Part shown: positions 5,286 to 48,721 of the stretch, one piece after another
Layout of the letters: every line of letters begins with the position of its first letter
How positions within the stretch are numbered: the stretch's first letter is position 1
Source: Elusimicrobiota bacterium
GTDB taxonomy: Bacteria > CG03 > SLGR01 > JAFGSA01
Direction: 5' to 3'
DNA: 64,000 nucleotides
Assembly (NCBI GenBank): GCA_016934855.1
Contig: JAFGSA010000052.1
Coordinates: forward strand, 6,220-70,219
The notes under the pieces: model-generated
The model's input: only the letters and a program-made list of their open reading frames with translations
Told to the model about the DNA's origin: nothing
The model's database searches: none
Position numbers and translations under genes: made by a program

Positions 5286-5305
5286 CAGCTGCCTTTTCCG
5301 GAAAC

Positions 5306-6559: not shown

Positions 6560-6578
6560 TTTATACCTCCTGTTTTCA

Positions 6579-8120: not shown

Positions 8121-8129
8121 GGCTCCTCC

Positions 8130-8438
8130 TTAATGATATTTTTTCGTCTTATTCCCTGCCGAAACACTGTCTACTATGCCGGCTATTATCGTCCTGGTCG
8201 GCCCCTTACCGGCCCCCATCATCTGCCGGCAGGAAGATCCCTCGTCGATTATGAGCACCGTATCGCCGGGACCCGCATCCATGCTGTGGTCTATCGCAAG
8301 CTGTACCGGACCCGACCTGGTCCCTTTCATCCCGTCTACCGGACATATTAGCATCAGCTTTTTCCCTTCGAGCGAAGGATGTTTTCTCGTTGCCCAGACG
8401 TTCCCTACAACTTTTGCTATAAACATATAAATTCGCAT
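8130..8438 (-). CDS. BMC-P vertex protein (EutN/CcmL family pentamer)
   Basis: 102 aa with the EutN_CcmL pattern IAKVVGNVWATRK...GDTVLI...GAGKG. Confidence 0.88.
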   Translation of the reverse strand: MRIYMFIAKVVGNVWATRKHPSLEGKKLMLICPVDGMKGTRSGPVQLAIDHSMDAGPGDTVLIIDEGSSCRQMMGAGKGPTRTIIAGIVDSVSAGNKTKKYH

Positions 8439-8500
8439 CTCGTGAAGCGCATTTCGTGAAGCGTGCTATTCAGATGTATTTTTCCCGGACGATTCACTTT

Positions 8501-8815
8501 TTACGTTTCACCCTTCACTAAATTTACTCCGTCTATTATGCCTATCACCGCGTTATGGCATATAGGCTCTTCCTCGAAAGCCTGGCATGCTTCTTTAGAG
8601 GAAACATAAAAGACATATTCCGAATAGCCTGCACCGACCGCGTCGAGCGCCAGCACCGATTTACCGCTGTCTTTCGGACTTATATCCTTCCCGCCGTTCA
8701 CAGCTTCCGCCACCTCTTCCCAGGTCATCGGCTTCAGCATCAGTATCTTCTTCCCTCCGGTATTAGGGTACTTGCTGGTAGCTACGACCCTGCCTATGAC
8801 CCTGCCGGCTTTCAT
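8501..8815 (-). CDS. BMC-P vertex protein (EutN/CcmL family), second paralog with an insertion
   Basis: MKAGRVIGRVVATSKYP... is the EutN/CcmL N-terminal signature. An atypical roughly 25 aa insertion is present. The stop overlaps the downstream RpiB start. Confidence 0.82.
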   Translation of the reverse strand: MKAGRVIGRVVATSKYPNTGGKKILMLKPMTWEEVAEAVNGGKDISPKDSGKSVLALDAVGAGYSEYVFYVSSKEACQAFEEEPICHNAVIGIIDGVNLVKGET

Positions 8816-9252
8816 CTTTTCTCCATGTCCGCTATAAGGTTAATCCTGCGTTCGTGGCGGCCGCCCTCGAACCCGGTCCTGAGGAAAGCGTCTACTATCT
8901 TCTTCGCCTTTGCGAAAGAGGTAAAATCTGCTCCCAGGCAGAGGATATTCGCGTTATTATGCTTCGCGGCCATGACCGCGGCTTTCGCGGTCCTCACGGT
9001 GACTCCCCTTATGCCTTTCACCTTGTTGACGGCGATGCATACTCCGAGCCCGCTCCCGCATACCGCTATTCCCTTTTCCGCCCTTTTCCCCGAAACATCC
9101 ATGGCTACTTTTTCCGCGTATACGGGGTAATCAACGGAAGCCGGTCCGTCCGTACCGTTATCTATTACTTCGTGGCCGGACGCTACCAGGAACTTCCTTA
9201 TCCTGTCCTTGAGCGCATATCCCCTGTGGTCCGATCCGACGGATATCTTCAT
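8812..9252 (-). CDS. rpiB: ribose-5-phosphate isomerase B / LacB-like sugar-phosphate isomerase (catalytic Cys retained)
   Basis: MKISVGSDHRGYALK...IAVCGSGLGVCIAVNK...GGRHERRI is the RpiB/LacAB family, with the CGSG catalytic cysteine. Confidence 0.88.
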   Translation of the reverse strand: MKISVGSDHRGYALKDRIRKFLVASGHEVIDNGTDGPASVDYPVYAEKVAMDVSGKRAEKGIAVCGSGLGVCIAVNKVKGIRGVTVRTAKAAVMAAKHNNANILCLGADFTSFAKAKKIVDAFLRTGFEGGRHERRINLIADMEKR

Positions 9253-9256
9253 ATTT

Positions 9257-9706
9257 TCACCTGTAATACCTGTCTTCGACGGATTTCACCTTGTCCAGCC
9301 TTTTCCGGTGCCTTCCCTCGCCGAAGGGAGTCTCCAGCCATTGGGTCACTATGTCACGGGCGAGAAGCGTACCCAGCATCTTGCCCCCGAGACAGAGCAC
9401 GTTGCAGTCGTCGTGCTCGGAAGCGTACGCTCCCGTAAGATGGTTATACGCCGTGACAGCCCTTATGCCCCTGACCTTGTTTGCCGTCAGGCAGACCCCC
9501 CCTCCGGTTCCGTCTATCAGTATGCCCCTGCCGTAATCTCCCCGCGATACGGCTTCGGCCACAAGCAGCGCGTAGTCGGGGTAATCGCAGGATTCTTCCG
9601 AATACGTGCCGAAATCTATCACGTTATGCCCTTTTCCCTGCAGAAATTTTTTAATATCTTCTTTTAAGGCGAAACCGCCGTGGTCCGATCCTATTACTAT
9701 ATTCAT
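9257..9706 (-). CDS. RpiB/LacA-like sugar-phosphate isomerase paralog (catalytic Cys replaced by Asp)
   Basis: MNIVIGSDHGGFALK...ILIDGTGGGVCLTANK...GEGRHRKR is the same family, but with DGTG in place of CGTG. SD AGGAG precedes the ATG. Confidence 0.85.
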   Translation of the reverse strand: MNIVIGSDHGGFALKEDIKKFLQGKGHNVIDFGTYSEESCDYPDYALLVAEAVSRGDYGRGILIDGTGGGVCLTANKVRGIRAVTAYNHLTGAYASEHDDCNVLCLGGKMLGTLLARDIVTQWLETPFGEGRHRKRLDKVKSVEDRYYR

Positions 9707-9788
9707 TTTCTGGTAACTCCTGATCCGTGTAATATGTCATGTGAAATGTGTAACGTATAAATATCAAATTCAGATGAAACCGGATGGA

Positions 9789-9810
9789 AATCTACTGCCA
9801 ATCTATTGCC
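9789..9810. repeat. tandem direct 11-mer repeat (aatctactgcc / aatctattgcc) in the 184 nt intra-operon gap between BMC-T and the RpiB pair
   Basis: Two adjacent 11-mers differ by one base; read directly from the sequence. Confidence 0.5.
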
Positions 9811-9890
9811 AGAATAACAATCTTCTGCAAATTGAAAATAATTTCTAAGCATGAAATTTCCCTGCACTTCGCATATTACAACTTATACAA

Positions 9891-10439
9891 TCACAGCACG
9901 CTCTTCCGCAGGTCTTTATGCGGACTCGGGATTATGACCCTTCTTATGAGTATCCCTTCTTCTTTTATCGAACCGCACCCCGCGTTCACCGCCGACCGGA
10001 CGCTGGCGACATCCCCGGTCATCGTAACATACGCTTTTCCGCCGAGAGCGTTTGCCAGCCTCACGTCTATGAGCCTGATATCGGCTGCCTTCGCCGCGCT
10101 GTCAGCGGCTATTATGCACGACGCGACCGAAAACGTTTCTATGATGCCCAGCGCCCCGATCTCCGAGACGTCAGACGTGCCCCTGATAGCAGGAACAAGC
10201 TGGTCATGCACGTTCTTTATTATCAGTTTATCGACCAGCGCGTCTTCTGCCAGGTTCAGGCCGCTTTTCAGAGAACTCTCCACATCGGCCGTCGAACCGG
10301 TTATAAGGACTATGAACTTGCCCGGGCAGACGGAATGGGCTTCCACCAGTTCGCTGCCAGCAGTTTTCAAAAGGGCATCGGTGACCTCAAACCCTTTGGC
10401 CACACTGCATAATTCTATCAATCCTATCGCGTTGCGCAT
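9891..10439 (-). CDS. BMC-T shell protein (tandem BMC-domain, PduT-like pseudohexamer)
   Basis: Two BMC domains (IGLIELCSVAKG... and IGALGIIETFSVAS...). The likely start is MRNAIGLIEL at 10439, 10 nt after the PduS stop, with a GGAG SD. Confidence 0.85.
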   Translation of the reverse strand: MRNAIGLIELCSVAKGFEVTDALLKTAGSELVEAHSVCPGKFIVLITGSTADVESSLKSGLNLAEDALVDKLIIKNVHDQLVPAIRGTSDVSEIGALGIIETFSVASCIIAADSAAKAADIRLIDVRLANALGGKAYVTMTGDVASVRSAVNAGCGSIKEEGILIRRVIIPSPHKDLRKSVL

Positions 10440-10449
10440 ATTTTGCTCC

Positions 10450-11766
10450 TCAGCCGGATATCTCGATATACTCACTGCTAAAGCCCTTCACGGTGCCGCT
10501 TATGCTGGAGTGGACCGCCGCGCCGAGCTTATCTGCGGGTATCCCGGCCAGCAGGTCTCCCTTTTTCACCCTGTCGCCCTCACTTACTACGGGACTTGCC
10601 GGTGTCCCTATATGCTGGCTGAGAGGTATTCTGACTTTTCCGGTATCCACGGTCTTGACCCTGATATCGTGCATATCGTATGAATCTATATCAAGCCGGG
10701 CCATAAGCCTGTCCGTATTGACTCTTCTGAATTCCCTTTCCGGATGCGCCTTGAGATCCGAAAGCGAATGGGGATTCTTTATCCCTTTCTCCGCGAGTTC
10801 CTTCTTCGTCTTCCTGAGCATGTCCCGGGGGGACAGATCAAGGGGGCACGCGTACATATTGCATAACCCGCACTCGCTGCACAGGTACGCGTTCGTAAGA
10901 TGCACCTGATCGCCGCCGATAAAAAAGTTCCTCATGATCATGTGCGGCGAGAGGTTGTGTCCCAGCAGGTTCCTTGGGCATACTATAGTGCAGTCGAAAC
11001 ACTGATCACAGGTGGATTTGGCCCTTCTGGCCATGGCCTCGAAACCGGCACTGTGCTTCGCCACAAGAGGATGATCGGGCTTCAGCACTATCAGTCCTCC
11101 GCAGAGCTTCGTTATACTGAAGGATCTCTCCACCACCTTGCCCATCATGGGACCGCCGGCTATCACGGCATAATCTTTCAGCAGAGGTACGGCCCTGTCT
11201 ATAAGTTCTCCCGCGGATATGCCCACGGGCACCTCCGCGATATACGGTTCTTCGACCTCACCGGCGACTGTTACCCACCTGGTTACCACCGGGGTATCGC
11301 TTTCCACCGCAGCATTTATATTCACAAGAGTGTTTACATTTATCACGACCGCACCGACGCTAAGAGGTATGCCTCCTTCCGGGATGATCCTCCCGGTTAT
11401 GTTATATACCAGCTCGAACTCGTCTCCGGCGGGGTAATAGTTATCCAGGAGCGCTACCCTGACGGATTTATCGCGGGCGGCTGCCTTCCTGACAGATTCC
11501 GCAGCTTCCGGATACTTTTTTTTCAGCGCGATAAAGACGTTTTTCGCCCCCGTTGTTTTTTTCACGTGCCCCAGACCCTGCATTATCTCGGCGGCACGGT
11601 TTTCCATCAGATACCTGTCCGTACTCAGCAGAGGCTCGCACTCGGCTCCGTTGGCTATCACGGTATCGACGGAGGCCGCTATCTTGACATGCGCAGGGAA
11701 TCCGCCCCCGCCTGCGCCTACGACTCCCGCTCTTCTGACTCTTTCGATAATATCCTTTTTCTCCAT
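10450..11766 (-). CDS. pduS: PduS/RnfC-like NAD(P)H-binding Fe-S flavoprotein (BMC cofactor-recycling oxidoreductase)
   Basis: N-terminal GAGGGGFP (Complex1_51K/SLBB region), two 4Fe-4S motifs (CDQCFDCTIVCP and CSECGLCNMYACP), and a C-terminal RnfC_N-like barrel segment PLSQHIGTPASPVVSEGDRVKKGDLLAG. Confidence 0.85.
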   Translation of the reverse strand: MEKKDIIERVRRAGVVGAGGGGFPAHVKIAASVDTVIANGAECEPLLSTDRYLMENRAAEIMQGLGHVKKTTGAKNVFIALKKKYPEAAESVRKAAARDKSVRVALLDNYYPAGDEFELVYNITGRIIPEGGIPLSVGAVVINVNTLVNINAAVESDTPVVTRWVTVAGEVEEPYIAEVPVGISAGELIDRAVPLLKDYAVIAGGPMMGKVVERSFSITKLCGGLIVLKPDHPLVAKHSAGFEAMARRAKSTCDQCFDCTIVCPRNLLGHNLSPHMIMRNFFIGGDQVHLTNAYLCSECGLCNMYACPLDLSPRDMLRKTKKELAEKGIKNPHSLSDLKAHPEREFRRVNTDRLMARLDIDSYDMHDIRVKTVDTGKVRIPLSQHIGTPASPVVSEGDRVKKGDLLAGIPADKLGAAVHSSISGTVKGFSSEYIEISG

Positions 11767-11811
11767 CCTATGATATCAATGATCTGGGTCTCGCCGGCTG
11801 TCTGTCCCGCG

Positions 11812-13242
11812 TCATACTATCCTGAAATAGTCCACAAGGGTGCAGCGCAGCGGGCGGGTGAATGTCTTCGCGCTTACCAGCCCGTCACCCGTAGGCGTGG
11901 CTATGGAAAGCGATGCGAACCCTTCTCCCATTCCGAGCCCCATGTAAGACGGGCCGTTTTTTACGAATATGGAGCATGCCGCGGCATAGGCCATCTTCGT
12001 CAGCCTGTCCACGTTCAGTGAATGCATCACGGCAGTGTGCCCGTTGCCTCCCTCCATCTCCACGGCAAGCTGTATAGTCCTGTCGATGGAACCGGTCCTT
12101 GCAAACGGGAGTATCGGCATGAGCTGCTCGGTCCACATAAAATCGTGTTTTTCGTCGACGAGGCCCCACAGCAGCCTTACATCTTCCCGCAGATCGATAC
12201 CCAGCGCGTTCTTCGCAATAAAAGAAGCGTTCCTGCCTACATACTCGCGGTTCAGCACGGGTTCCCTGCAGCCGGCACCGCCTTTTACTATCGCGGCAGA
12301 CGCGAGCCTGTCCATCTGTTCCGGCGACAGTTCGTGAACCCTGGGATCTTTTCTCATTCTCTCCAGCACAGCCTCGGCCGCGCCGTCTGCCAGAAGGACT
12401 TCTTTTTCCGCCGTGCACAGTATGCCGTTATCGAAACTGGCCCCCCTTATTATCGAATCCACCGCTTTTTCGAAATCGGCGGTTTCGTCGACAACTACCG
12501 GAGGGTTCCCGGGCCCGGCGGCGATGACTCTCTTACTGCTTTTCATCGCTGCCGCGACTACCCCCGGGCCTCCGGTCACAAGAAGAATCCTTATATCAGG
12601 ATGAGTAAACAGGGTCTGTGCTCCCTCGATGCTGGGGGTTTTCATCGCGGTTATCAGCCCCCTAGGGCCGCCGCTCGCCGCTATGGCGTCTGAAAGGATC
12701 TGCATAGTATACTGGGAGACCTCCCTGGCAGCGGGATGCGGGGCGAATACCACGGAATTGCCCGCCGCTATTATGCTTATAGAATTATTTATTATCGTAG
12801 ACGGAGGATTGGTCGAGGGAGTAACGGCTCCTATGATCCCGTAAGGCGCCCTTTCCACGAGAGTCAGCCCGTTGTCCCCGGTGAAAGCTTCGGGACGCAG
12901 ATCTTCGACACCCGGCGTTTTTTCCGCGGCCAGGGTGTTCTTCAGCACTTTGTCTTCCCACCGGCCCATCCCGGTCTCCCTGCTTGCCATCTTCGCAAGC
13001 GTCTGAGCTTCTTTAAGGGAAACACGGCGCATCGCATCAATCAGTCTCTTCCTGGTCTCAAGATCCGTATCCCTGAGCTTTCTCTGCGCTTCCTTCGCGG
13101 CCAGGATCGCCTCTTCCATCGTCTGGAAAAGTACCCCGTCACCCGAGGAGGCGGCAGGGCCGTATGATACGCCCTTCTCCTTCTCCATCCTTGATATTAT
13201 CTCTCTTACCACGTCTGATATCTGCTTCTCGTCTACATTCAT
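11812..13242 (-). CDS. CoA-acylating aldehyde dehydrogenase (PduP/EutE-like) with an N-terminal encapsulation peptide
   Basis: Aldehyde dehydrogenase fold with the catalytic-Cys region ILCTAEKE. The N-terminal amphipathic helix ISDVVREIISRM is followed by a linker. The ORF-track start at 13257 is TTG; the ATG at 13242 follows the SD GAGAGG. Confidence 0.85.
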   Translation of the reverse strand: MNVDEKQISDVVREIISRMEKEKGVSYGPAASSGDGVLFQTMEEAILAAKEAQRKLRDTDLETRKRLIDAMRRVSLKEAQTLAKMASRETGMGRWEDKVLKNTLAAEKTPGVEDLRPEAFTGDNGLTLVERAPYGIIGAVTPSTNPPSTIINNSISIIAAGNSVVFAPHPAAREVSQYTMQILSDAIAASGGPRGLITAMKTPSIEGAQTLFTHPDIRILLVTGGPGVVAAAMKSSKRVIAAGPGNPPVVVDETADFEKAVDSIIRGASFDNGILCTAEKEVLLADGAAEAVLERMRKDPRVHELSPEQMDRLASAAIVKGGAGCREPVLNREYVGRNASFIAKNALGIDLREDVRLLWGLVDEKHDFMWTEQLMPILPFARTGSIDRTIQLAVEMEGGNGHTAVMHSLNVDRLTKMAYAAACSIFVKNGPSYMGLGMGEGFASLSIATPTGDGLVSAKTFTRPLRCTLVDYFRIV

Positions 13243-13301
13243 TCTCATACCTCTCAAAGCTTGATACGGGTCCGCTTCCGGTATTCGCCGTGGATCGGCG
13301 G

Positions 13302-13595
13302 CTACTTGGTTTTTCTGAAGATAACCTTCCCTTCTTTCTCTATGTAATCCACTATTCCCATTACCGTGCAGTCTACCGGCCTGTTCTCGGTGGCATCCGT
13401 CATCCTGGCGGATGACCCCTTGACGAACAGGACTACCTCCCCCTCTCCGGCTCCCACTGAATCGATCCCCACCTGCGGTGCCGAAGTAGGCTTGAGATTA
13501 TCGTCTACGGGCTGTACCAGGAGAAGTTTCCTCCCCTGGATTTTTTCATCCTTTACGGTGCAGACCACGTTTCCTGTTATTATTCCGAATTCCAT
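13302..13595 (-). CDS. BMC-P vertex protein (EutN/CcmL family), third paralog
   Basis: MEFGIITGNVVCTVK...GEVVLFVKGSSAR is the EutN_CcmL pattern. Confidence 0.88.
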   Translation of the reverse strand: MEFGIITGNVVCTVKDEKIQGRKLLLVQPVDDNLKPTSAPQVGIDSVGAGEGEVVLFVKGSSARMTDATENRPVDCTVMGIVDYIEKEGKVIFRKTK

Positions 13596-13620
13596 GCTTG
13601 TTCTCCTTTAAGACTGACGC

Positions 13621-13917
13621 TCATTTTACAGGTCTTATGGGAAGCAGTTCCTCCAGATCCCGGAAAGGATATGGGATGACATGGGCGCTCATCACTTTCC
13701 CCACCCGGTTAGCCGCGCTGCAGGCCGCATCTACGGCCGCCTGGCAGTCCGCCACGGAACCCCTGACCAGCACCGTCACTATCCCGTCTCCGGTTTTCCT
13801 GTAACCGGCTATCTGGACCTTCGCCGTTTTCAACATGACATCGGCCGCTTCCACCATGGCAGTCAGTCCCATGGTCTCGATCATGCCGAGGGCTGTCATG
13901 TCCCTGTCAATATCCAT
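13621..13917 (-). CDS. BMC-H shell protein (PduA/EutM-like hexamer)
   Basis: ALGMIETMGLTAMVEAADVMLKTAKV...VTVLVRGSVADCQAAVDAA is the BMC domain. An alternative start at 13899 (MTALGMIET) is plausible. Confidence 0.9.
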   Translation of the reverse strand: MDIDRDMTALGMIETMGLTAMVEAADVMLKTAKVQIAGYRKTGDGIVTVLVRGSVADCQAAVDAACSAANRVGKVMSAHVIPYPFRDLEELLPIRPVK

Positions 13918-13923
13918 AACGCT

Positions 13924-14541
13924 TTAACATATAAAAACCTTATCGCCGTTTTTCAGATCACACGAATTGGCCTCGTCCGTATCTATATGACACTCGAGCC
14001 TGTATTTATCGCTCACACGCACCAGCACGTTTTCGAATACGACCGACCTGGATCCGGCTGTCCGGATGCGGACCTCCTGCTTGTCTGCGAGATTGAATTC
14101 TTCGGCGTCCGCGGGGGTCATATGAATATGCCTTCTGGCTACGATCACTCCCTCTTTTATCTGCAGGGATCCCTTAGGCCCGATAAACCTGGCCCCGCCG
14201 GAGCTCTTTATATCCCCGGATTCCCTGACCGGGACTTCTATCCCGATCCTGTAGCTGTCGGTCCTGGATATCTCGGCCTGGGTTATCTTTCTCGCGGGGC
14301 CGAGTACCCTTACGTTCTTGAGCGTGCCCCTGGGTCCGAGTATATCTATCGTCTCCCGCGCAGCGTATTCGCCGGGCTGCACCAGGTCCCTCAGTTTGCG
14401 CAATTCGTATCCGCTCCCGAAAAGCGCCTCTATGGCTTCCCGGGTCAGATGCACGTGCCTGTTGGAGATATTGCAGATGACAGGTTTATCCATCCTCCCG
14501 AGTCTCTTAACAACTTCTCCTGCGATCTTAGATATGTCCAT
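13924..14541 (-). CDS. pduL: phosphate acyltransferase PduL (PTAC) with an N-terminal amphipathic helix
   Basis: Two PduL repeats, NISNRHVHLT...GPRG and ARRHIHMTPADAEEF...ECHIDTDEAN. The N-terminal helix is ISKIAGEVVKRLGRM. Confidence 0.9.
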   Translation of the reverse strand: MDISKIAGEVVKRLGRMDKPVICNISNRHVHLTREAIEALFGSGYELRKLRDLVQPGEYAARETIDILGPRGTLKNVRVLGPARKITQAEISRTDSYRIGIEVPVRESGDIKSSGGARFIGPKGSLQIKEGVIVARRHIHMTPADAEEFNLADKQEVRIRTAGSRSVVFENVLVRVSDKYRLECHIDTDEANSCDLKNGDKVFIC

Positions 14542-14623: not shown

Positions 14624-15520
14624 TCAACCCCTGAATTTTACTATGCTTGCAAATGAACCGGCCTCAAGACTGGCCCCGCCGACCAGACCTCCGTCTACGT
14701 TCTCCTGCTTCATTATGTCCGAGATGTTATCCGGTTTTATGCTCCCTCCGTATAGGATCCTGATATTCTGGGCGAGTTCTTCCGTGAACATCTCCGAGAG
14801 GGTATTCCTTATAAACTTGTGCGCTTCTTCGGCCTGTGCGGGAGTCGCCGTCTTTCCGGTACCTATCGCCCAAACGGGTTCATATGCTATGGTCAGCGCT
14901 TCCTTTTCATCTTCACTTAGGTCGGCCAGCCCGCCGGAGAGCTGTTTCTTAAGAACTTCGAACGTCTTTCCCTTCTCCCTTTCCTGGAGCGACTCGCCTA
15001 TGCATACTATGGGCTTCAATCCTTCTTTCACGGCGAACTTCAGCTTTTTATTGACTGTCCCGTCCGTGCACCCGAAATACTGCCTTCTCTCGGAATGCCC
15101 TATTATGACCCACTCGCATCCGCATTCCCTGAGCATCGGCGGAGATATCTCCCCCGTGTAAGCGCCGTTCTTTTCCGGATACATGTTCTGCGCGCCCAGG
15201 GCGATGTTGGTCCCCTTCAGAAGTTCGCCTGCCAGGTTCAGCGCGGTATAGGGAGGCGCAACCATTATATCTACGTCGGTTACACCGGCGACCTTGTCTT
15301 TAAATGCCTTTATGAATGCAACGGTCTCGCTGCCGGTCTTATTCATCTTCCAGTTTCCAGCCATCAATGGTCTTCTCATCAGTTCCTCCGTTATCTCGAT
15401 ACCATGGGTATCCGCCGCTTCCCTGGCCATAGGAGTGACAAGCGTCCCCTTCGTCAGGGATACCCTCCTTTTTCCGCTCCTTATTGCTGACATTATGTCA
15501 ACATATTTGTAAATTCCCAT
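14624..15520 (-). CDS. tpiA: triosephosphate isomerase with a roughly 48 aa N-terminal extension
   Basis: The core MAGNWKMN...IAYEPVWAIGTGKTATPAQAEE...GGSIKPDN is TIM. The extension MGIYKYVDIMSAIRSGKRRVSLTKGTLVTPMAREAADTHGIEITEEL precedes it. The start codon abuts a predicted promoter. Confidence 0.88.
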   Translation of the reverse strand: MGIYKYVDIMSAIRSGKRRVSLTKGTLVTPMAREAADTHGIEITEELMRRPLMAGNWKMNKTGSETVAFIKAFKDKVAGVTDVDIMVAPPYTALNLAGELLKGTNIALGAQNMYPEKNGAYTGEISPPMLRECGCEWVIIGHSERRQYFGCTDGTVNKKLKFAVKEGLKPIVCIGESLQEREKGKTFEVLKKQLSGGLADLSEDEKEALTIAYEPVWAIGTGKTATPAQAEEAHKFIRNTLSEMFTEELAQNIRILYGGSIKPDNISDIMKQENVDGGLVGGASLEAGSFASIVKFRG

Positions 15521-15526: not shown

Positions 15527-15555
15527 AATATACTATTATTTTATTATACAGTCAA
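15527..15555 (-). promoter_or_regulatory. predicted sigma70-type promoter of the BMC operon (TTGACT-17 nt-TATATT, overlapping a TGTATAAT element), 6-7 nt upstream of the tpiA ATG
   Basis: Reverse-strand sequence TTGACTgtataataaaataatagTATATTttctaaATG sits in an AT-rich 72 nt intergenic gap. Confidence 0.5.
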
Positions 15556-15592: not shown

Positions 15593-16693
15593 TCAGTTGA
15601 AACCCATGACCCTGTTGCGCCCCTGTTCTTTGGCCATATACAGCCGGCTGTCTGCCATATTGATCAGATCATCGAAAGTTTCCATATTATCGGAATATTC
15701 GGCGACTCCTATTGTGACCGTCATGCCGTAATCGCACCGGTTATGCGTAAAAACCGTTTCTTCGATGTTCTTCCTGAGCCTTTCCGCCAGTACGGACGCT
15801 TTCCTGCCGGCCGTCTCCGGCATCATGACCACGAATTCGTCGCCGCCGTACCTGGCGCACAGGTCGGCCGCCCTGGTGCTCTGGAGTATCAGCTTAGATA
15901 TGTGTATGAGCGCCTGGTCGCCTACCTGGTGCCTGTTGGTATCGTTGAAATCCTTAAAATTGTCTATGTCGATAAAAACAAGCGACAGAGCACGCCCGTA
16001 CCTTTTTGCCTTCTCGAATTCCTTGTGCATGTGCCGGAGGAAATATCTCTTTATGTACAAACCTGTCAGGCCGTCTGTAATAGCCAGTTCGTACATCCTT
16101 GCATTGTTTATGGAGACAGCTGCATGGGACGCTATTATGGACATAAGCCGCTCATCGTTCCTTATAAACTGTTCCCCGGTGATCTTGGAATCCAGGTTGA
16201 CGACTCCCAGGAGCTCACCCTTGAATATCAGGGGAAGAGAAAGAATGGTCTCCTTCGGCAAGGCATCATCCGGGAATATCTCCTTGTAGAACCTGTTTTC
16301 CGTCGTGTCGTTTACCAGAACTGGTTTTCTGGTATACGCCACTCTGCCCGCGATACCTTCTCCTATCTTCAACTTCACATTCTCTACGGCCCTCGGGCTT
16401 AGCCCCAGGGATTCCCTTATCCGCAGGATGCCTTCCTTCCTGTCATAAAGCATTATAGAACCTTTTTTTACTTTGCCAGCTTTCACGAACGCTCCCATGA
16501 TTGCGGGAAGCAGCTCGTTCATCTCGAGATGCGAGGACATGTCGCTAGAGAGCTTCTGCAGCAGTTTCAGGTCATGGACAGCCTGACGGAGAAATCCGGT
16601 CCTGTTCCTCAGCCTGAAATAATTCTTCAGCAGGAATAATATTCCTGAAACAATTGCCAGTATTAATACGGAACAGAAGATCCGGCCGGTCAC
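15593..16693 (-). CDS. membrane-anchored GAF-GGDEF diguanylate cyclase
   Basis: N-terminal TM segment, a GAF-like region, and a GGDEF domain with an intact RYGGDEF active site. The start overlaps the upstream permease stop by 4 nt. Confidence 0.85.
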   Translation of the reverse strand: MTGRIFCSVLILAIVSGILFLLKNYFRLRNRTGFLRQAVHDLKLLQKLSSDMSSHLEMNELLPAIMGAFVKAGKVKKGSIMLYDRKEGILRIRESLGLSPRAVENVKLKIGEGIAGRVAYTRKPVLVNDTTENRFYKEIFPDDALPKETILSLPLIFKGELLGVVNLDSKITGEQFIRNDERLMSIIASHAAVSINNARMYELAITDGLTGLYIKRYFLRHMHKEFEKAKRYGRALSLVFIDIDNFKDFNDTNRHQVGDQALIHISKLILQSTRAADLCARYGGDEFVVMMPETAGRKASVLAERLRKNIEETVFTHNRCDYGMTVTIGVAEYSDNMETFDDLINMADSRLYMAKEQGRNRVMGFN

Positions 16694-17586
16694 AGGCTGA
16701 GCTCCTCCGGGTAGGGCTTACCCACGGCTGCCGGCGGTTCGGATCTCCCTATAAGCCCGGAAAGCACTATTATAGTCAGCAGGTATGGTATGGACTGGAT
16801 GAACTGGCTGGGTATGTTTACTCCCATAGTCTGGACATGTATCTGTATGCTCTCCGCAAGGCCGAATATCAGCGCCGCCCCGGTCGCTCCCAGAGGTGTC
16901 CACTTGCCGAATATCATGGCTGCCAGCGCGATAAAACCCCTGCCGCTGGACATATTGGATGTGAACTGCGACTGCTGCATTGCGAGCCATGCGCCTGCCA
17001 GGCCCGCCAATGCTCCGCTTATCGCGACCCCGGAGTATCTCATCAGCCATACGTTTATTCCGAGACTGTCCGCCGCCGCCGGATTTTCCCCGCACGCCCT
17101 GAGACGCAGTCCGAAAGGAGTCTTGAAGAGGATTACATGCGCCAGGACCACGATGAAAACAGTTATGACTATCACCGGGCTTATGCCGCCGATCACAGGA
17201 AAAGTAATAAGCTTCAACGGTATTATCCTCGCGGAATTCGATGAACTTCCGAAAACAAGAATAAGGAAGAATTTTGTTATGCCTACAGCGAAGATATTGA
17301 TCGCTACTCCGCTTACTATATGATTCACCTTGTACCTTATGCAGCTTACGGCGTGGATGACGGAAGTGATTATCCCGCCGGTCACTCCCGCGATAAGACC
17401 GAGCCACGGATTCCCCAGGTAATATGTTCCCACTACCGAACAGAAAGCGCCGTTCAGCATTATCCCTTCCAGCCCTATATTTATAACCCCCGAACTCTCC
17501 GAAAAGACGCCGCCCACGGCCGCCAGTATGTAAGGGACGGATATCCTGACAGTCTGCAGTAAAATATTCAGGACGAAATCCGTCAC
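16690..17586 (-). CDS. ABC transporter permease (nucleoside/simple-sugar type, BMP-system)
   Basis: 298 aa polytopic permease; its start is coupled to the upstream permease stop. Confidence 0.8.
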   Translation of the reverse strand: MTDFVLNILLQTVRISVPYILAAVGGVFSESSGVINIGLEGIMLNGAFCSVVGTYYLGNPWLGLIAGVTGGIITSVIHAVSCIRYKVNHIVSGVAINIFAVGITKFFLILVFGSSSNSARIIPLKLITFPVIGGISPVIVITVFIVVLAHVILFKTPFGLRLRACGENPAAADSLGINVWLMRYSGVAISGALAGLAGAWLAMQQSQFTSNMSSGRGFIALAAMIFGKWTPLGATGAALIFGLAESIQIHVQTMGVNIPSQFIQSIPYLLTIIVLSGLIGRSEPPAAVGKPYPEELSL

Positions 17587-18710
17587 TATTTCCTCCTGAG
17601 CCCTTCCCGGGAAACCTGTTCCCCTATTATGGCGTCGGCTCTCTGCGTATCCGGCTTATCGTCTCCGGTCGCTGAATTCCTCAGGAGTATCCTGGAAAAG
17701 ACGGTGTTTCCCACGACCACGCTCAGTATGACAACAGCCTGGAGTATATCAAGGATCTCCTTGGGCACCACAGAGTTAACAAGAAGGCTTCCGAAAGAAA
17801 GCCCTCCGAACAGAAGGCTTGCGGCTATGATGCCGAACGGATGGTTTTTCCCGAGCAGAGCTACTGCTATCCCCATGAATCCCACGCCTCCCGAAAAGCC
17901 CTGTTCGAAATAATACTTGTAACCCATGACATAATTGGAACCGACCAGCCCCGATATGCCGCCCGAGACGGCCAGCGTCACGATCATCATCTTCGAACTG
18001 TCAACCCCCGCGTACTCTCCCGCAGCAGGGTTGTAACCCATTGCTCTCAACTCGTAACCAAACCTGCTTAAATACAATATATACCATACAGCCAGCGCCG
18101 CTGCTAACGCTATAAAAAAACTGAAATTGAGCGAAGAACCCTTAAAACCCGGAAGTATGCCGGCGATGGCCGGGAGCCGCGCCGCAGCTGCTATCTGCGG
18201 CGTCCTCACTGTTCCGGGAACGAAGAAATGGCTCGTGACTATATAGTTAGTGAAAGCGAGAGCAATGAAATTCAGCATGATGGTGGTTATAACTTCGTGG
18301 GCTCCGGTCTTTGCTTTCAGCATACCAGGGATGAATCCCCAGGCCGCACCGCCGGCCGCGGCGGCGGCAAGGCACACGGGAATCAACAGCAGCCCGGGCA
18401 GCCCTGAAAAAACACAGCCTGTCCAGGCGCACAGGAGCGATCCCATGTAAAGCTGTCCTTCGCACCCGATATTGAACAGACCCGCCTTGAAGGCGAATGC
18501 GACCGCAAGTCCCGTAAATATCAGGGGGGTCGCATAAAAAAACAGCTGTCCTATGCCGTAAAGATTCCCGAAAATGCCGGAGAATAGAATGGAATATACG
18601 AAGAAAGGATTCTTCCCTGTGATGAGGATGAATAGCGCTCCCACCGCCAGAGAGAATAAAACAGCCATGAGCGGCACCGCCAGGTTGATCATCAGGGTCT
18701 TTCTTTTCAC
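17586..18710 (-). CDS. ABC transporter permease (nucleoside/simple-sugar type)
   Basis: 374 aa polytopic permease overlapping the ATPase stop. Confidence 0.8.
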   Translation of the reverse strand: MKRKTLMINLAVPLMAVLFSLAVGALFILITGKNPFFVYSILFSGIFGNLYGIGQLFFYATPLIFTGLAVAFAFKAGLFNIGCEGQLYMGSLLCAWTGCVFSGLPGLLLIPVCLAAAAAGGAAWGFIPGMLKAKTGAHEVITTIMLNFIALAFTNYIVTSHFFVPGTVRTPQIAAAARLPAIAGILPGFKGSSLNFSFFIALAAALAVWYILYLSRFGYELRAMGYNPAAGEYAGVDSSKMMIVTLAVSGGISGLVGSNYVMGYKYYFEQGFSGGVGFMGIAVALLGKNHPFGIIAASLLFGGLSFGSLLVNSVVPKEILDILQAVVILSVVVGNTVFSRILLRNSATGDDKPDTQRADAIIGEQVSREGLRRK

Positions 18711-20236
18711 TGCCTCTCCTGCATGCTAATGCTGCCGGTCATCATCATGCCCAGTTCCTCTTCACAGGTCTTATCTGGAGAGGTCTCTCCCGTTATCCTC
18801 CCGGAAAACATGACAAGGATCCTGTCCGAAAGAGCCAGTATCTCGCTCAGCTCGGAAGATACCAGGATGATCCCTTTGCCTTTGGCTCTCTCTTCGAGAA
18901 GTTTTTTATATATTATCTCCACCACTCCTATGTCGACTCCCCTGGTCGGATGCGCGGCGAGGAGCACCGACGGGTTACGGTCTATCTCCCTGGCTACGAC
19001 TATCTTCTGCTGGTTCCCCCCGGAAAGACTGTAGGCCGGCGCGCCCGGGTTGCCCGGGACGATATTATACTCGCTTATCATCTGCCGGCTTTTTTCGCGC
19101 ATCCCGGTAAAATTCATCTTCCAGATACCGTGCGAAAAACTCCTGTCAGCCTGCCGGCCCAGCGCCATATTGAACGCCACGGAATATTCCAGAACAAGAC
19201 CGTGCCTTTGCCTGTCAGCCGGGATATATGACATCCCTTCCCTCCGTGCCCGGGCGGGCTCCAACCGCGTGATATCCCTGCCCATGAGATATATCTTCCC
19301 CGAACTGGTTTTCTTAAGCCCCCATACGGCTTCCAGCAGGTCGTTCTGCCCGTTGCCTTCCACCCCTGCGATGCCGAGGATCTCCCCGGAACTGAGTTCG
19401 AGAGATACGTTATCCAGCGCCTTCACCCCTTTTTCATCTTCCAGGCTGACGCCCCTGAGTTCGAGAAGGGTCTCCTTCTTCTCGGCCTTTTTCCTGCCTG
19501 TTTCAAGATAAACGGTACGCCCTATCATCATGCGCGACAGCTCCGACTCGTCGGTCTCGCCTGTCTGCCTGACACCTGCCACCGCACCCTTGCGCATCAC
19601 GGTCACCCTGTCCGCTATCTCCATCACCTCTTTCAGTTTATGAGTTATGAATATGACCGTATGGCCCTGTTCCTTCAGGTTCCTGAGAATAAGGAAAAGC
19701 TCTTTTACTTCCTGGGGAGTCAGCACCGCTGTGGGTTCGTCCAGGATGAGGATTTTCGCGCCCCGGTAAAGGACTTTCACTATTTCAGCCCTCTGCAGCA
19801 TCCCCACAGGGAGGTTTCCTGTTATTTCGCCAGCCGGGATACCGAAACCGTACCTGTCCGAGATCTCTCTGATTTTTTCCAGGCCTTTCCGGATATCCGT
19901 GAAAGGCCCGCGGCGGGGCTCCCTGCCGAGCACTATATTCTCGGCAACGGTGAAACGGCGCACCAGCATGAAATGCTGGTGGACCATGCCTATCCCGTGA
20001 GAAATGGCTACGTGGGGATTTTCCATCCTGACCTTCTTTCCCCGTATGACTATATTCCCCTTGTCCTGGTGCTCGAGACCGTAGAGGATGTTCATGAGGG
20101 TGCTCTTGCCGGCTCCGTTTTCGCCGACTATGGCATGTATCTCGCCGTCCTTTACACCCAGATTTATATTGTTATTTGCGATTACCCCCGGAAATGTTTT
20201 TGTGATATTGCGAAGTTCTACCGCGAGGAAAGCCAT
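18707..20236 (-). CDS. ABC transporter ATP-binding protein with duplicated NBDs
   Basis: Two Walker A sites (GENGAGKST and a second NBD) with LSGG signatures; 509 aa. Confidence 0.85.
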   Translation of the reverse strand: MAFLAVELRNITKTFPGVIANNNINLGVKDGEIHAIVGENGAGKSTLMNILYGLEHQDKGNIVIRGKKVRMENPHVAISHGIGMVHQHFMLVRRFTVAENIVLGREPRRGPFTDIRKGLEKIREISDRYGFGIPAGEITGNLPVGMLQRAEIVKVLYRGAKILILDEPTAVLTPQEVKELFLILRNLKEQGHTVIFITHKLKEVMEIADRVTVMRKGAVAGVRQTGETDESELSRMMIGRTVYLETGRKKAEKKETLLELRGVSLEDEKGVKALDNVSLELSSGEILGIAGVEGNGQNDLLEAVWGLKKTSSGKIYLMGRDITRLEPARARREGMSYIPADRQRHGLVLEYSVAFNMALGRQADRSFSHGIWKMNFTGMREKSRQMISEYNIVPGNPGAPAYSLSGGNQQKIVVAREIDRNPSVLLAAHPTRGVDIGVVEIIYKKLLEERAKGKGIILVSSELSEILALSDRILVMFSGRITGETSPDKTCEEELGMMMTGSISMQERQ

Positions 20237-20246
20237 CTTTTAAATT

Positions 20247-21290
20247 CTATTTTTCTTCCAGCTGGATCTCTATTTCTCCGTCAATTATTTTCCGTTTCAG
20301 TTCTTCGACCCTCGATATGATATCCGGCGATATCAGGAACCTGTTGTTTTCGTCGTATATGTATCCGACCCCGTTATCCTTCAGACCCAGCTGTTTTATC
20401 CCTCCCTCGAACTGCCCCGTCATCTTATTCCTTATTATATGGTAGACGGAGACATCCACTCTCTTTATCATCGATGTCAGGATATTGCCGGGAGCCTCAT
20501 GATACTGGTCCGAATCCACTCCTATGGCGAGCATATCCTTTTCCCGGGCCGCCTCGAATACACCCAGCCCCGTAGATCCCGAAGCATGGTATATTATATC
20601 GGCGCCGCTATGGTACTGAGACAGGGCCAGTTCTTTTCCCTTAGCCGGGTTTTTGAACGCCTCGCCCGTCACGCCGGCATAGGCCACGAGCACCCTGCAG
20701 CCGGGATTTACTTCTTTCACTCCCTGCACGAAACCCGTTTCGAACTTGTGTATTAACGGTATATCCATCCCTCCGATGAACCCTACCGTGCCGGTTTTTG
20801 TCATCAGACCCGCTATAGAGCCCACGAGGAAAGAGCCTTCCTGTTCACTGTAATTTATAGCGGCGAGATTATCCGGGACGTTCAAGCCTTCGGATATATT
20901 ATAGTCGATACACACGAAATCGACATCGGGAAAATCATTGGCTATCCTGGTTATATCGTCCGTGAAAAGTATTCCTATGCCGAACACGAGGTCGAATCCC
21001 CTGGATGCGAACATCCTCAACGCCGATTCCCTGTCCGCGCCGGATCCGGGCTCCACATATTCCGTGTATATATCGAAGTCCGCCTTGGCCTTTTCGAGCC
21101 CCCTGTACGCGGAATCATTAAAGGATTTATCTCCGCGGCCGCCTATATCGAAGACCAGCCCTACCTTCAGCTTCCCGGCGGATCCGTCGTTTTTACCGGC
21201 AGTGCATCCCCCAAGGAGAAAAACGGATATGAACAAGAATTTTACAGTCGAACTCATTTTAAACCTCTGTTTTTTACCAGTCTTCATCAA
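20247..21290 (-). CDS. BMP-family (PnrA/Med-like) nucleoside-binding lipoprotein, the substrate-binding protein of the ABC importer
   Basis: Lipobox LLGGC, then KVGLVFDIGGRGDKSFND typical of basic membrane protein/purine-nucleoside receptors. An alternative start MSSTVKF at 21257 avoids overlap with the 5'-nucleotidase. Confidence 0.8.
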   Translation of the reverse strand: MMKTGKKQRFKMSSTVKFLFISVFLLGGCTAGKNDGSAGKLKVGLVFDIGGRGDKSFNDSAYRGLEKAKADFDIYTEYVEPGSGADRESALRMFASRGFDLVFGIGILFTDDITRIANDFPDVDFVCIDYNISEGLNVPDNLAAINYSEQEGSFLVGSIAGLMTKTGTVGFIGGMDIPLIHKFETGFVQGVKEVNPGCRVLVAYAGVTGEAFKNPAKGKELALSQYHSGADIIYHASGSTGLGVFEAAREKDMLAIGVDSDQYHEAPGNILTSMIKRVDVSVYHIIRNKMTGQFEGGIKQLGLKDNGVGYIYDENNRFLISPDIISRVEELKRKIIDGEIEIQLEEK

Positions 21291-22827
21291 GACTCACGTT
21301 TATCATTCTTCCCTCGATCCTGGCGTGTATCGGGGAATTGCCCTTAATATATTTTATTTCCTCGTCCCTGAGTATCAGCCCTGTATCCTCGATCTCCGTG
21401 CCTTCCGAGAAAACGCTGTAGCCGTCTCCCCCTTCCGCCAGGAAGGAGTTTGTCACGACCGTGTATTCCTTCTCGTCCTCTATCTCCGAAAGGCCCGCTT
21501 CTTCGTCTTTTATTATGATGTTCAGGACTCTTCTGCCTTCAGGGAGAGAGCTGTTGTATATCATCTTCAGACCGGAGACCTGCAGCCTGGATTGTTTTGC
21601 AGATGCGCTCTGCTCCAGAAGACGGCGGACCTGGGAACCCTTGAGCACCATCTTCACAAGCGTATTCCCGAAAGGAGACAGCTCCCAGACATCCCTTACC
21701 CTAATATCGCCGTCCGGTATCGCCGCCCTTATGCCCCCGGAATTCTGAAAAGCAAAATCGCAACCGGTCAGCTCCCTCATCATATCAGTCTGCCAGTTAC
21801 CCAGGGCAAGTTCGCCGTTCTTGGAATCTTCGCCGTAGGTCCTGTGAAGCATAAGCACATCTGATGCGCCTATCACCTCGTTCATCCTTGCGGTAAGCTC
21901 GCCGAACGACTCGCTTATGAATTCGTCTATTTCTTTTTTACCGGGATACCTGGAAGCCAGGAGCGGGACGACCCTGTTCGAATACGACATTATTTTCCTT
22001 TCGATAATGCTGTAGTATATCTTCAGGTGACCTGCATACTGGAAATGACACCCCGGTTCGCAGATGAGCACTCTTCTTACTTTCTTCGGTTCGTCGAACT
22101 TCAGATGCGTATGTCCGCCGAGTACTATATCGACTCCCTCAAGGCCTTCTGCCAGCTGCATGTCTTTCTCGGCTCCCTGATGCGATAACAGGATGATTAT
22201 TTCCGCCCCTTTCTTCCTGAGCCTCGCGGCACTCTCGTTTGCGGTCTCAAGCGGGTCGGCGAACTCAAGGCCCTCGATATTTTCCCCCATGGTGATGAAT
22301 TTCATATCCTGCGTGAGTATACCGGTAAAACCCACCTTTACACCGTTGAGTTCGGTGATAAAGGCATCCTTTATATACCCGGGGTTAAGCCCCGTGCCGG
22401 CATCGATGATATTCGCCCCGAGCATGGGAAAGCCGGCAAGACCGGACAGTTCTTCCAGAGTCTCCCTGCCCATATCGAAATCATGATTGCCGACAGCCAT
22501 CACATCATAACCCAGCAGGTCCATCAGTTCTACCACTATCCTGCCCTCTGTCAGGATGCCTTCGGGCGTGCCCTGGAATATGTCTCCGGAATCCGCCAGC
22601 AGGTAATCGCGCTTCAGCCTGCCCAGGAAATTCCCCAGGGCCGACATGCCGCCTATCGCGGTCTTCTTCCCGTCCTTATACATCATGGAAGGAAAGACAT
22701 GCCCGTGACCGTCGGAAGTGTAGACCACGTCCAGCTCCACGACGTACCTGTTCCAGTAATATCCGTAGGCGGCAAGGAATAATCCGGCCGCGAACACCGG
22801 GACCGCTATTCGGCGCAGGTATTTCAT
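21274..22827 (-). CDS. secreted bifunctional 5'-nucleotidase / metallophosphoesterase (UshA family)
   Basis: Signal peptide, a calcineurin-like domain ([13 protein letters not shown]) and a C-terminal 5'-nucleotidase domain ([12 protein letters not shown]). Confidence 0.85.
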
Positions 22828-22842: not shown

Positions 22843-24120
22843 TCACTTAGGTATATCCAGACTCTCCACTTCCATCAGCTTGAGGAATTCCTCGTTGGAT
22901 TCCGTGGACCTCATCTTCTGTACGACGAGTTCCATGGCTTCCACGACTCCGAGAGGATTCAGTACCTTCCTCAGTATCCAGACTTTATTGATCTCTTCTT
23001 CGGGAGCTAGGAGTTCTTCCTTCCTGGTCCCCGACCTGAATATGTCTATCGCGGGGAAGACTCTCTTGTTAACGAGCCTCCTGTCGAGGTTTACTTCCAT
23101 GTTGCCCGTTCCCTTGAACTCTTCGAAGATAACATCGTCCATCTTACTGCCTGTCTCGATCAGCGCTGTCGCGAGTATCGTGAGGCTCCCGCCTTCTTCT
23201 ATGTTCCTGGCGGCCCCGAAGAACCTTTTGGGGCGCTGAAGGGCCTGCGAATCCACTCCGCCTGTAAGCACGCGCCCGGATGACGGCGCTATGGTATTAT
23301 ACGCGCGCGCAAGCCGGGTGATGGAATCCAGCAGTATCACCACGTCCTGCTTATGTTCGACCATCCTTTTGGCTTTTTCTATCACCATCTCGCTGACTTT
23401 GATATGCCGGTTGGCGGATTCGTCGAACGTTGAGCTTATGACCTCGCCGTGAACGGACCTTTCCATATCGGTCACTTCCTCGGGCCTTTCGCCCACGAGG
23501 AGCACTATCAGCTTCACCTCGGGATGATTGTTTGTTATGGCATTTGCTATCTTCTGTAGGATTATAGTCTTCCCGGCCCTCGGCGGAGACACGATAAGTC
23601 CTCTCTGTCCCTTTCCTATAGGCGTCAGAAGGTTCATTATCCTCGTTTCTATCACATCCCTTGTGGTTTCCAGGTTTATCCTTTCCATGGGATACAGGGG
23701 AGTGAGTTCGTCGAACTTCGTCCGCTCCCTTATCGTAGCCGGATCGTCGCCGTTCACCGCTTCGACCTTCAGAAGCGCGTGATAACTCTCGCCGTCTTTC
23801 GGAGGGCGGACCTCGCCGTATACCGTATCGCCTTTTCTCAGAAGGAACTTCTTTATCTGCGACGGCGATATATAAATATCATCGGGGCCGCTCACATAGT
23901 TGTTCTTATTGCAGCGCAGGAAACCGAATCCGTCAGGAAGTATTTCCAGCACCCCCTCTTTATATATCTTTCCGTCGTTGTTGTTCTTCTGCCTTCCCTT
24001 CATTATCTCCATTACCAGTTCCTTTTTCTTCATGTTATTGGTATTGGGGATATCGAATCTTTTCGCTTCCTCCTTAAGTTCCTTTACAGTCTTCGTCTCG
24101 AGTTCGTTAATATCTACCAT
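22843..24120 (-). CDS. rho: transcription termination factor Rho
   Basis: N-terminal Rho_N plus a cold-shock-like RNA-binding domain, an ATPase with GKT, and the Q/R loops; 425 aa. Confidence 0.92.
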
Positions 24121-48708: not shown

Positions 48709-48721
48709 AAAGGAAGGAATC

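Follow-up and report, generated by a model that had tools for sequence, protein, structure and literature searches.

Microcompartments of the SPU type are among the most widespread bacterial organelles, and the DNA-debris substrate proposed for them rests mainly on the presence of DERA. A locus of an Elusimicrobiota bacterium (assembly GCA_016934855.1, contig JAFGSA010000052.1, positions 6,220 to 70,219), where a nucleoside-uptake module lies directly upstream of an SPU1 bacterial microcompartment (BMC) operon, raises the question of what the module does and whether it belongs to the compartment. We analysed these 64,000 nt (the window); coordinates below are positions in the window, loci of relatives carry L numbers and homologous proteins carry P numbers. 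The module reads along the minus strand from 22827 to 15593 and, judged by open reading frames (ORFs) and Pfam matches, encodes in this order a 5'-nucleotidase (5'NT), a Bmp lipoprotein, an ATP-binding cassette (ABC) ATPase, two permeases and a GAF-GGDEF protein. We lean towards the reading that it is a nucleoside-acquisition cassette set within a larger conserved Elusimicrobiota neighbourhood of nucleoside catabolism around SPU1.

The nucleoside-uptake module

All the genes that a first-pass annotation of the sequence had named here are present on the minus strand at the positions listed in Table 1, as judged from Pfam and the translations. That annotation had placed the module upstream of the BMC operon and in the same orientation, which is correct with a shift of emphasis, in that the operon lies downstream, at lower coordinates, after a 72-bp gap. 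On its 5' side the module follows polA, coaE and rho, and on its 3' side the gap, which is AT-rich, leads to the gene for triosephosphate isomerase (TIM) and then to the SPU1 operon. The rho stop codon is followed after 15 bp by the 5'NT start, gaps of 16 bp and 10 bp separate the 5'NT gene from bmp and bmp from the ATPase gene, the ATPase stop codon overlaps permease 1 by four bases, the two permease genes overlap by a single base, and permease 2 shares the four bases GTGA with the GAF-GGDEF gene, which bears out the start/stop overlaps previously described at this end of the module.

The 5'NT matches PF00149, the calcineurin-like metallophosphatase domain, in its N-terminal part (37.3 bits) and PF02872 in its C-terminal part (138.8 bits). 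Its translation begins with basic residues followed by a 19-residue hydrophobic stretch, a signal or membrane anchor, and contains the dimetal motifs DGHGH, GDIFQG, GNHDFD and GGHTH as well as SHQG. The best solved homologue is the Thermus 5'-nucleotidase (2z1a, E 8.5e-58), and the score against the NCBIfam equivalog of E. coli UshA (NF007109) is 171 bits, short of the cut-off of 600. On these matches the protein is a predicted member of the UshA/CD73 family and not an UshA orthologue. Orthologues with 39-51% identity occupy the same position in five Elusimicrobiota relatives.

The bmp gene probably starts with the ATG at 21257, which an AGAGG ribosome-binding site precedes by 8 nt, and the translation from this codon begins with MSSTVKFLFISVFLLGGC, a lipoprotein signal ending in an LGGC lipobox. 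The protein aligns with PF02608 over profile positions 4-298 of 301 (242.1 bits, cut-off 24.1). Among solved structures the best match is 7x0r, the protein 'Lbp' from Clostridium thermocellum (E 2.4e-54), and next come PnrA of T. pallidum, BmpA and BmpD of Borrelia and PnrA of pneumococci; all four of the solved homologues compared with their papers, down to E 1e-39, are nucleoside binders. In BmpA the family-conserved positions of the nucleoside pocket are F27, D98, F151, F176, V224, D225 and K242, among which F27 and F176 stack and D98, D225 and K242 bind ribose (PMC13325309). All seven are kept in the window protein (F57, D129, F183, F212, V258, D259 and K276, in phmmer alignments to 9q1u, 2fqw and 7x0r), and D48, D54 and N58 likewise align with the BmpA/PnrA pocket. 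In each of the nine Acidobacteriota loci whose Bmp shares 45-48% identity, a gene for pyrimidine-nucleoside phosphorylase (PyNP) lies upstream; it directly adjoins in seven of them and lies at a distance of about 2 kb in the other two. ATPase homologues follow bmp in 14 of 14 related loci. The locus of the closest Bmp relative (L001, 65% identity) has the genes 5'NT-bmp-ABC in the same order, an independent adjacency. From these comparisons we conclude that the Bmp protein is a predicted nucleoside binder; the solved homologues, the pocket residues and the PyNP neighbours agree with the earlier assignment of the importer to the nucleoside rather than the sugar type.

Synteny in relatives and the transporter slot

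Using TIM homologues as handles, we examined the neighbourhoods of eight further Elusimicrobiota loci (L080/L081 and L085/L086 are named as pairs, and L092 shares a contig with L081). The backbone conserved in this region reads polA-coaE-rho-5'NT-GGDEF-TIM-PTAC-shell genes, with the rho context in the same order in L080, L082, L085, L088 and L089, and this gene order is held at only 58-68% TIM identity. The slot between the 5'NT and GGDEF genes is empty in L080/L081, L085/L086 and L089, is filled by a gene for a 612-aa CNT/NupC-type nucleoside transporter in L082, and holds the four-gene Bmp ABC system in the window. The Bmp ABC importer is thus a lineage-specific insertion between two residents, the 5'NT and the GAF-GGDEF protein. 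The nearest Bmp relatives that a pattern-limited scan found in genome representatives belong to an unclassified hydrothermal-sediment metagenome-assembled genome (MAG), an unclassified uncultured-bacterium MAG, Gemmatimonadaceae and Acidobacteriota, and not to SPU1-bearing Elusimicrobiota, which is weakly consistent with lateral acquisition of the cassette.

Since two unrelated nucleoside uptake systems are found in one slot, it can be argued that the position has been selected for nucleoside supply, and no other single observation speaks as strongly for a functional link to the adjacent pathway as this slot-sharing. The 5'NT stays beside TIM-RpiB-DeoC even in the shell-less locus L088. In both shell-less loci (L087 8001-13174 and L088 8354-12483), TIM-(PTAC)-RpiB-DeoC stands at the same place without shell genes, AldDH or GGDEF, and these loci look like shell-less derivatives or precursors of SPU1. 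In another phylum, the Acidobacteriota, genes for BMC-H and AldDH (plus BMC-P in L013) lie directly upstream of PyNP-Bmp-ABC (L009 4017-12556 and L013 21-13207), which is an independent adjacency of microcompartment and nucleoside-uptake genes.

The SPU1 operon and a proposed supply route from nucleosides

SPU1 loci are defined by genes for DERA (pfam01791) and RpiB (pfam02502) beside two BMC-P genes, the other genes being those for AldDh, PTAC, TIM, a third BMC-P, two BMC-H, a PduS-like protein and a tandem-BMC shell protein, and according to the published descriptions the type is confined to Elusimicrobia (Sutter et al. 2021, PMC8217296; Dwyer et al. 2024, PMC11585597). The window operon agrees with this definition in gene content and host; its TIM is 100% identical to that of an Elusimicrobia MAG, and its DERA domain scores 293 bits against the deoC equivalog TIGR00126 (cut-off 117).

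The TIM carries an N-terminal extension of about 47 aa (MGIYKYVDIMSAIRSGKRRVSLTKGTLVTPMAREAADTHGIEITEEL, 15380-15520, minus strand) with no Pfam match. Homologues P0002-P0012 and P0014 have the extension in conserved form; it is in frame in four other shell-bearing loci (L080, L082, L084 and L090), persists as a degenerate remnant in L085 and L089, and is absent from the shell-less L087 and L088. Published SPU1 descriptions give encapsulation peptides for AldDh and PTAC and none for TIM (PMC8217296; PMC11585597), and the extension may therefore be an undescribed targeting tag.

Turning to the enzymes that could link nucleosides to the compartment, the phosphorylase of the PNP/UDP family that had been noticed nearby is a uridine phosphorylase (Udp) equivalog and the only nucleoside phosphorylase found within the window, and the NUDIX hydrolase named together with it is also in place (Table 1). 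The first-pass annotation had further stated that neither deoB nor an acetate kinase gene is visible. No homologue of deoB, PyNP or CNT was found by tblastn in the whole window, and neither PF01676 (phosphopentomutase) nor PF00871 (acetate kinase) was found among the Pfam-scanned ORFs of at least about 150 aa, so that the statement holds for the window; for deoB, however, the absence is probably an effect of the window's edge. The window ends within a transketolase gene whose product is 79% identical to the transketolase of L092, and there the aminotransferase and transketolase genes are followed by genes for adenine deaminase, a PF01676 phosphopentomutase, purine-nucleoside phosphorylase (PNP), PyNP, a DHH protein, a short ORF, a second PNP and a ribokinase-like PfkB kinase. 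The transketolase gene of the shell-less L088 is likewise followed by those for the same mutase (deoB) and PNP. Judged by this synteny, the 'missing' deoB probably lies just past the left edge.

We propose a route in which the 5'NT, membrane-anchored or secreted, would strip phosphate from extracellular (deoxy)nucleotides, the Bmp lipoprotein would catch the resulting nucleosides, and the ATPase with its two nucleotide-binding domains (NBDs) and the two permeases would import them. Cytoplasmic phosphorylases (Udp and, probably encoded past the left edge by synteny, PNP and PyNP) would then release (deoxy)ribose-1-phosphate, which a phosphopentomutase would convert to the 5-phosphate. Deoxyribose-5-phosphate would enter the compartment and be cleaved by DERA to acetaldehyde and glyceraldehyde-3-phosphate, after which AldDH and PTAC would convert acetaldehyde to acetyl-phosphate, TIM would handle the triose, and RpiB, transketolase and Rpe would handle ribose-5-phosphate. 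The sequences themselves show the identities of the genes, a binding pocket of the nucleoside type, the synteny and a transporter slot that varies; the substrates and the flux into the compartment are inferred. Degradation of (deoxy)nucleosides through a DERA compartment had already been suggested for this locus, and the relatives lend the suggestion locus-level support (CNT in the slot of L082, deoB and PNP in L088 and L092, and PyNP in L092). The idea itself is not new: SPU compartments have been proposed to process deoxyribose-5-phosphate from DNA degradation (PMC8217296; PMC11585597), so that the catabolic reading is supported here but did not originate here.

A conserved GAF-GGDEF gene upstream of TIM

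The last gene of the module encodes a predicted diguanylate cyclase whose translation contains one N-terminal hydrophobic helix, a GAF domain, an intact RYGGDEF motif and an RAAD I-site, the RxxD inhibitory site lying five residues before GGDEF (RAAD-LCARY-GGDEF). It scores 171.5 bits against TIGR00254 (cut-off 37.4) and, over a full-length alignment, 196.8 bits against the named DgcA equivalog NF041606, below the cut-off of 370. Orthologues with 53-61% identity are encoded directly upstream of TIM in L080/81, L082, L085/86, L089 and L090. They share the helix, the GAF domain, the GG(D/E)EF motif (GGDEF or GGEEF in every orthologue) and the RxxD site, which is kept in seven of seven aligned orthologues. 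Thus, a GAF-GGDEF gene is found in every shell-bearing SPU1 locus with a visible upstream side (six distinct sequences including the window) and is absent from both shell-less loci, L087 and L088; in this small sample the association with shell-bearing SPU1 loci is real. The earlier view of the GGDEF protein as an accessory or passenger of the transporter is not borne out: in relatives without a transporter its neighbours are the 5'NT and SPU1, and since it is kept there, the GGDEF gene belongs to the SPU1 locus and the transporter is the insertion.

What this association means is a separate matter. That the GAF-GGDEF protein is a passenger kept by descent, with a cell-wide role in cyclic di-GMP (c-di-GMP) signalling unrelated to uptake or compartment, is to our mind only a little short of an even chance. 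No PilZ domain was found among the window ORFs scanned with Pfam, no c-di-GMP riboswitch was matched at E<=1 in positions 1-28500 (the sole match being a spurious U7), and no Rfam family reached the gathering threshold over the whole window. Also in line with a passenger, the most distant cyclase homologue on a long contig (47% identity) has an unrelated response-regulator context without a BMC, and the sample amounts to about six distinct loci, several of them from related MAGs. A mere passenger is less easily reconciled with a gene that stands directly upstream of the TIM promoter in all visible shell-bearing loci, is missing from the shell-less ones, and stays put while transporter cassettes change on its 5' side. 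The orthogroup is, moreover, small and sharply bounded, with about 20 clusters at an identity of at least 46%, the named ones all from Elusimicrobia(ota). A pattern-based metagenome scan returned relatives whose identity did not exceed 34% over the full length or 44% over the GGDEF domain by itself, and which shared no neighbours; its peptide patterns missed the true orthologues, which came via the TIM neighbours.

Tentatively, we put forward the possibility that the GAF-GGDEF protein is a dedicated component of shell-bearing SPU1 loci, which would tie compartment expression, assembly or use to c-di-GMP. The whole stretch would then be one supra-locus of about 30 kb leading from extracellular DNA to acetyl-phosphate (5'NT-[transporter]-GGDEF-SPU1-...-deoB/PNP/PyNP), with a swappable uptake slot. 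That the cyclase couples a GAF-sensed cue to c-di-GMP is a guess. We found no paper that links a diguanylate cyclase to a microcompartment locus.

Transcription and the alternatives to catabolic supply

The promoter-like site in the gap before TIM (Table 1) has counterparts at the equivalent place in L082, L085, L089 and L090 (TTGACT-N17-TATATT or TATAAA), with close variants in L080, L087 and L088, and given this conservation the SPU1 operon probably starts its own transcript. The strongest promoter match of the region (12/12) is upstream of polA, and from rho to GGDEF no terminator-like site on the coding strand separates the genes, except for weak ones inside genes. Because the rho gap measures only 15 bp and the BMC operon has a promoter-like site of its own, a single transcript shared with the BMC operon is not indicated. 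From these sequence signals, two units seem the most economical arrangement, one running from polA to GGDEF, perhaps with internal promoters, and the other being the SPU1 operon with an initiation of its own; transcription of the module probably goes along with that of polA-coaE-rho or follows directly upon it.

This arrangement bears on a second alternative, namely that the 5'NT and importer feed nucleotide salvage only and lie near SPU1 by descent of a conserved housekeeping block (polA-coaE-rho ... DnaA-like gene), with no dedicated flux into the compartment. A rho-5'NT junction free of terminator-like sites, the promoter match at polA and the separate promoter-like site of the BMC operon would all fit such a history, as would the lack of a transporter in L080, L085 and L089 and the description of PnrA and Bmp systems as salvage transporters in spirochaetes and pneumococci. 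We nevertheless consider salvage alone unlikely, although by no means negligible, given that two unrelated nucleoside transporter families share the slot beside SPU1, that the 5'NT is still joined to TIM-RpiB-DeoC where the shell is missing, that the gene order survives the sequence divergence noted above, and that relatives carry a full catabolic set within a few kb on the downstream side (deoB, PNP and transketolase in L088 and L092, and in L092 also genes for PyNP, adenine deaminase and a ribokinase-like protein).

Several points weigh against catabolic supply of the compartment and have to be set beside this evidence. The case is built from gene content and context, and the genes for deoB, PNP and PyNP are not seen on the window's own contig. 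The importer is absent from most relatives and is therefore not required for SPU1 function, while the slot-replacement argument draws on one locus per transporter type. The 5'NT gene, 15 bp after rho in a housekeeping string (polA-coaE-rho), could owe its position to inherited order instead of functional coupling. Salvage makes use of nucleoside importers and 5'-nucleotidases no less than catabolism does, and the preference of the Bmp protein for ribo- or deoxyribonucleosides is not readable from its sequence.

Far less probable than either alternative above is that the Bmp transporter takes up something other than nucleosides (a sugar, riboflavin, vitamin B6 or a purine base), as some PF02608 members do: the family includes the riboflavin-binding RfuA (4iil), the atrazine/purine-binding 6pi5 and a putative B6 subfamily, and 7x0r was originally named a laminaribiose-binding protein, but according to its structure paper 7x0r holds guanosine in its crystal pocket and the knockout still grows on laminaribiose, all seven family-conserved pocket positions are kept in the window protein, the putative B6 subfamily model of NCBIfam gives 85 bits against a cut-off of 400, RfuA matches merely at E 6e-12, and PyNP genes adjoin those of Bmp homologues. 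Sugar binding was rejected on the guanosine and the missing laminaribiose phenotype of 7x0r, and B6 or riboflavin specificity on NCBIfam B6 scores far under their cut-offs and the distance of RfuA. The first-pass annotation had made its reading depend on Bmp not clustering with sugar-binding proteins; the solved homologues compared are nucleoside binders, and on this point the reading is not refuted.

Other genes of the window

Downstream of SPU1 follow a conserved small ORF and genes for an FTCD_C protein, a DnaA-like ATPase, a response regulator, an aminotransferase and the transketolase that runs off the left edge. The small ORF (95 aa, 5889-6176, minus strand), between the last BMC-H gene and that for FTCD_C, has no Pfam match and recurs with 94-99 aa in L080, L081, L082, L084, L090 and L092. 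The DnaA-like AAA+ protein (791 aa, 3093-5468, minus strand) has zinc-ribbon and FYVE-like matches in its C-terminal part; it passes the DnaA equivalog cut-off but aligns only with model positions 99-345 of 437, and thus has no DNA-binding domain IV. Homologues of 672-710 aa are encoded downstream of SPU1 in L080, L081, L084, L087, L090 and L092. A histidine kinase gene that follows the DnaA-like gene in L092 is missing from the window, and the same kinase gene follows that of an unannotated 676-aa protein in L088; relatives thus carry a histidine kinase/response regulator pair, whereas the window keeps the response regulator only.

The only plus-strand block of the window (44328-49477) encodes AllH-like, FdrA-like (with CoA-ligase domains) and AllG-like proteins and a PF04199 cyclase, followed by Udp. 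The AllH-, FdrA- and AllG-like proteins resemble subunits of oxamate carbamoyltransferase, known from purine/allantoin breakdown, which hints at base catabolism beside Udp. DprA (37830-38936) and a ComM/YifB-like Mg-chelatase-family ATPase (52967-54502), both on the minus strand, are tied to DNA uptake or processing. An ankyrin-repeat ORF (52284-53447, minus strand, listed with 387 aa) runs in the same direction as the ComM-like ORF and overlaps its 3' part; for one of the two, the start codon has probably been set too far upstream. Also encoded in the window are a member of the uridine kinase family (40656-41291) and a ribulose-phosphate 3-epimerase (32126-32761).

Table 1. Positions of the nucleoside module, the SPU1 operon and associated features in the 64,000-nt window
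Feature	Coordinates	Strand	Evidence
Transketolase, N-terminal 454 aa, off window edge	1..1362	-	Translation; 100% match to 677-aa transketolase P0121, same 72,626-bp contig
SPU1 operon	6260..14541	-	PTAC, BMC-H, BMC-P, AldDH, PduS-like, tandem-BMC-domain shell protein, two RpiB, two BMC-P, flavoprotein-DERA, BMC-H (Pfam)
Triosephosphate isomerase (TIM), first SPU1-operon gene	14624..15520	-	PF00121, 332.9 bits, starting at residue 51
Promoter-like TTGACT-17-TATATT	15527..15555	-	Consensus scan, 10/12 matches; in 72-bp gap before TIM
Membrane-anchored GAF-GGDEF predicted diguanylate cyclase	15593..16693	-	GGDEF PF00990, 143.9 bits; GAF_2, 61.2 bits
ABC permease 2	16690..17586	-	BPD_transp_2, PF02653, 146.1 bits
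ABC permease 1	17586..18710	-	BPD_transp_2, PF02653, 134.9 bits
ABC ATPase, two fused nucleotide-binding domains	18707..20236	-	Two ABC_tran stretches, 159 bits
Bmp/PnrA-family predicted nucleoside-binding lipoprotein	20247..21257 (longest ORF 20247-21290)	-	PF02608
Exported UshA/CD73-family 5'-nucleotidase, 517 aa	21274..22827	-	Metallophos and 5_nucleotid_C
rho	22843..24120	-	Pfam Rho_N, Rho_RNA_bind, ATP-synt_ab
Uridine phosphorylase (Udp)	48698..49477	+	TIGR01718, 285 bits (cut-off 280.3); PNP_UDP_1
NUDIX hydrolase	49560..49979	-	PF00293, E 5.5e-23; Nudix box 49785-49850

Relation to known systems and biological meaning

The importer resembles known PnrA/Bmp systems (the T. pallidum PnrA operon, Borrelia BmpA/BmpD and pneumococcal PnrA) in its PF02608 lipoprotein, with an aromatic sandwich and a ribose-binding Asp/Lys pocket, and in the combination of one fused double-NBD ATPase with two BPD_transp_2 permeases in the same gene order. 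NupNOPQ of Bacillus subtilis is a further nucleoside ABC importer of the PnrA/Bmp type. Unlike these systems, the window importer is preceded by an ecto-5'-nucleotidase, wedged before a GGDEF gene and placed upstream of a microcompartment operon; the identity of its Bmp to solved members is modest (E 2e-54 at best), and its specificity is a prediction from sequence. In enterobacteria the deo regulon combines deoCABD with nupC/nupG and the periplasmic UshA. The logic is alike, proceeding from a nucleotidase through nucleoside uptake, a phosphorylase, a phosphopentomutase and DERA to acetaldehyde and glyceraldehyde-3-phosphate. In Elusimicrobia, however, a protein shell encloses the DERA and aldehyde steps, the genes do not form one deo operon but lie scattered around housekeeping genes across about 30 kb, no DeoR or CytR is seen, and a GAF-GGDEF gene is present at every shell-bearing locus.

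Among compartments, the published SPU1 type is alike in its Elusimicrobia host, its gene set and the deoxyribose-5-phosphate from DNA breakdown proposed as its substrate (PMC8217296; PMC11585597). The flanking 5'NT, the nucleoside transporters, GGDEF and deoB/PNP/PyNP go unmentioned in the text and searchable supplements of Sutter 2021 and in the main text of Dwyer 2024, and no regulator of SPU types is described in either paper (PMC8217296; PMC11585597). SPU-type compartments of Hodarchaeales share the flavoprotein-DERA fusion, AldDH, PTAC, RPI and TPI, and a 5'-nucleotidase, a uridine phosphorylase and a phosphodeoxyribomutase have been proposed as their supply route (2025 preprint, PMC12747264). 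The supply enzymes were inventoried genome-wide in that work, whereas several are physically clustered with the compartment genes at the window locus, and the preprint describes no link to a transporter or GGDEF protein.

The uptake module therefore consists of known families, and what it adds comes from its context, in which the uptake slot can be swapped, the ecto-nucleotidase is conserved, deoB, PNP and PyNP probably form a cluster, and the cyclase goes with the shell-bearing SPU1 loci. At the Elusimicrobia locus the supply chain is clustered with the organelle genes, with an ecto-nucleotidase, interchangeable nucleoside transporters and, in relatives, deoB, PNP and PyNP, and this clustering provides independent genomic-context support for the DNA-feeding model and suggests concrete substrates, namely deoxynucleotides and deoxynucleosides. 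For the regulation of such organelles, the constant presence of GAF-GGDEF at loci with shell genes provides a testable lead. If the cyclase is indeed dedicated to these loci, DNA or nucleoside feeding might, for example, be switched on in a surface-attached state rich in extracellular DNA, and a metabolosome would for the first time be linked to a second messenger.

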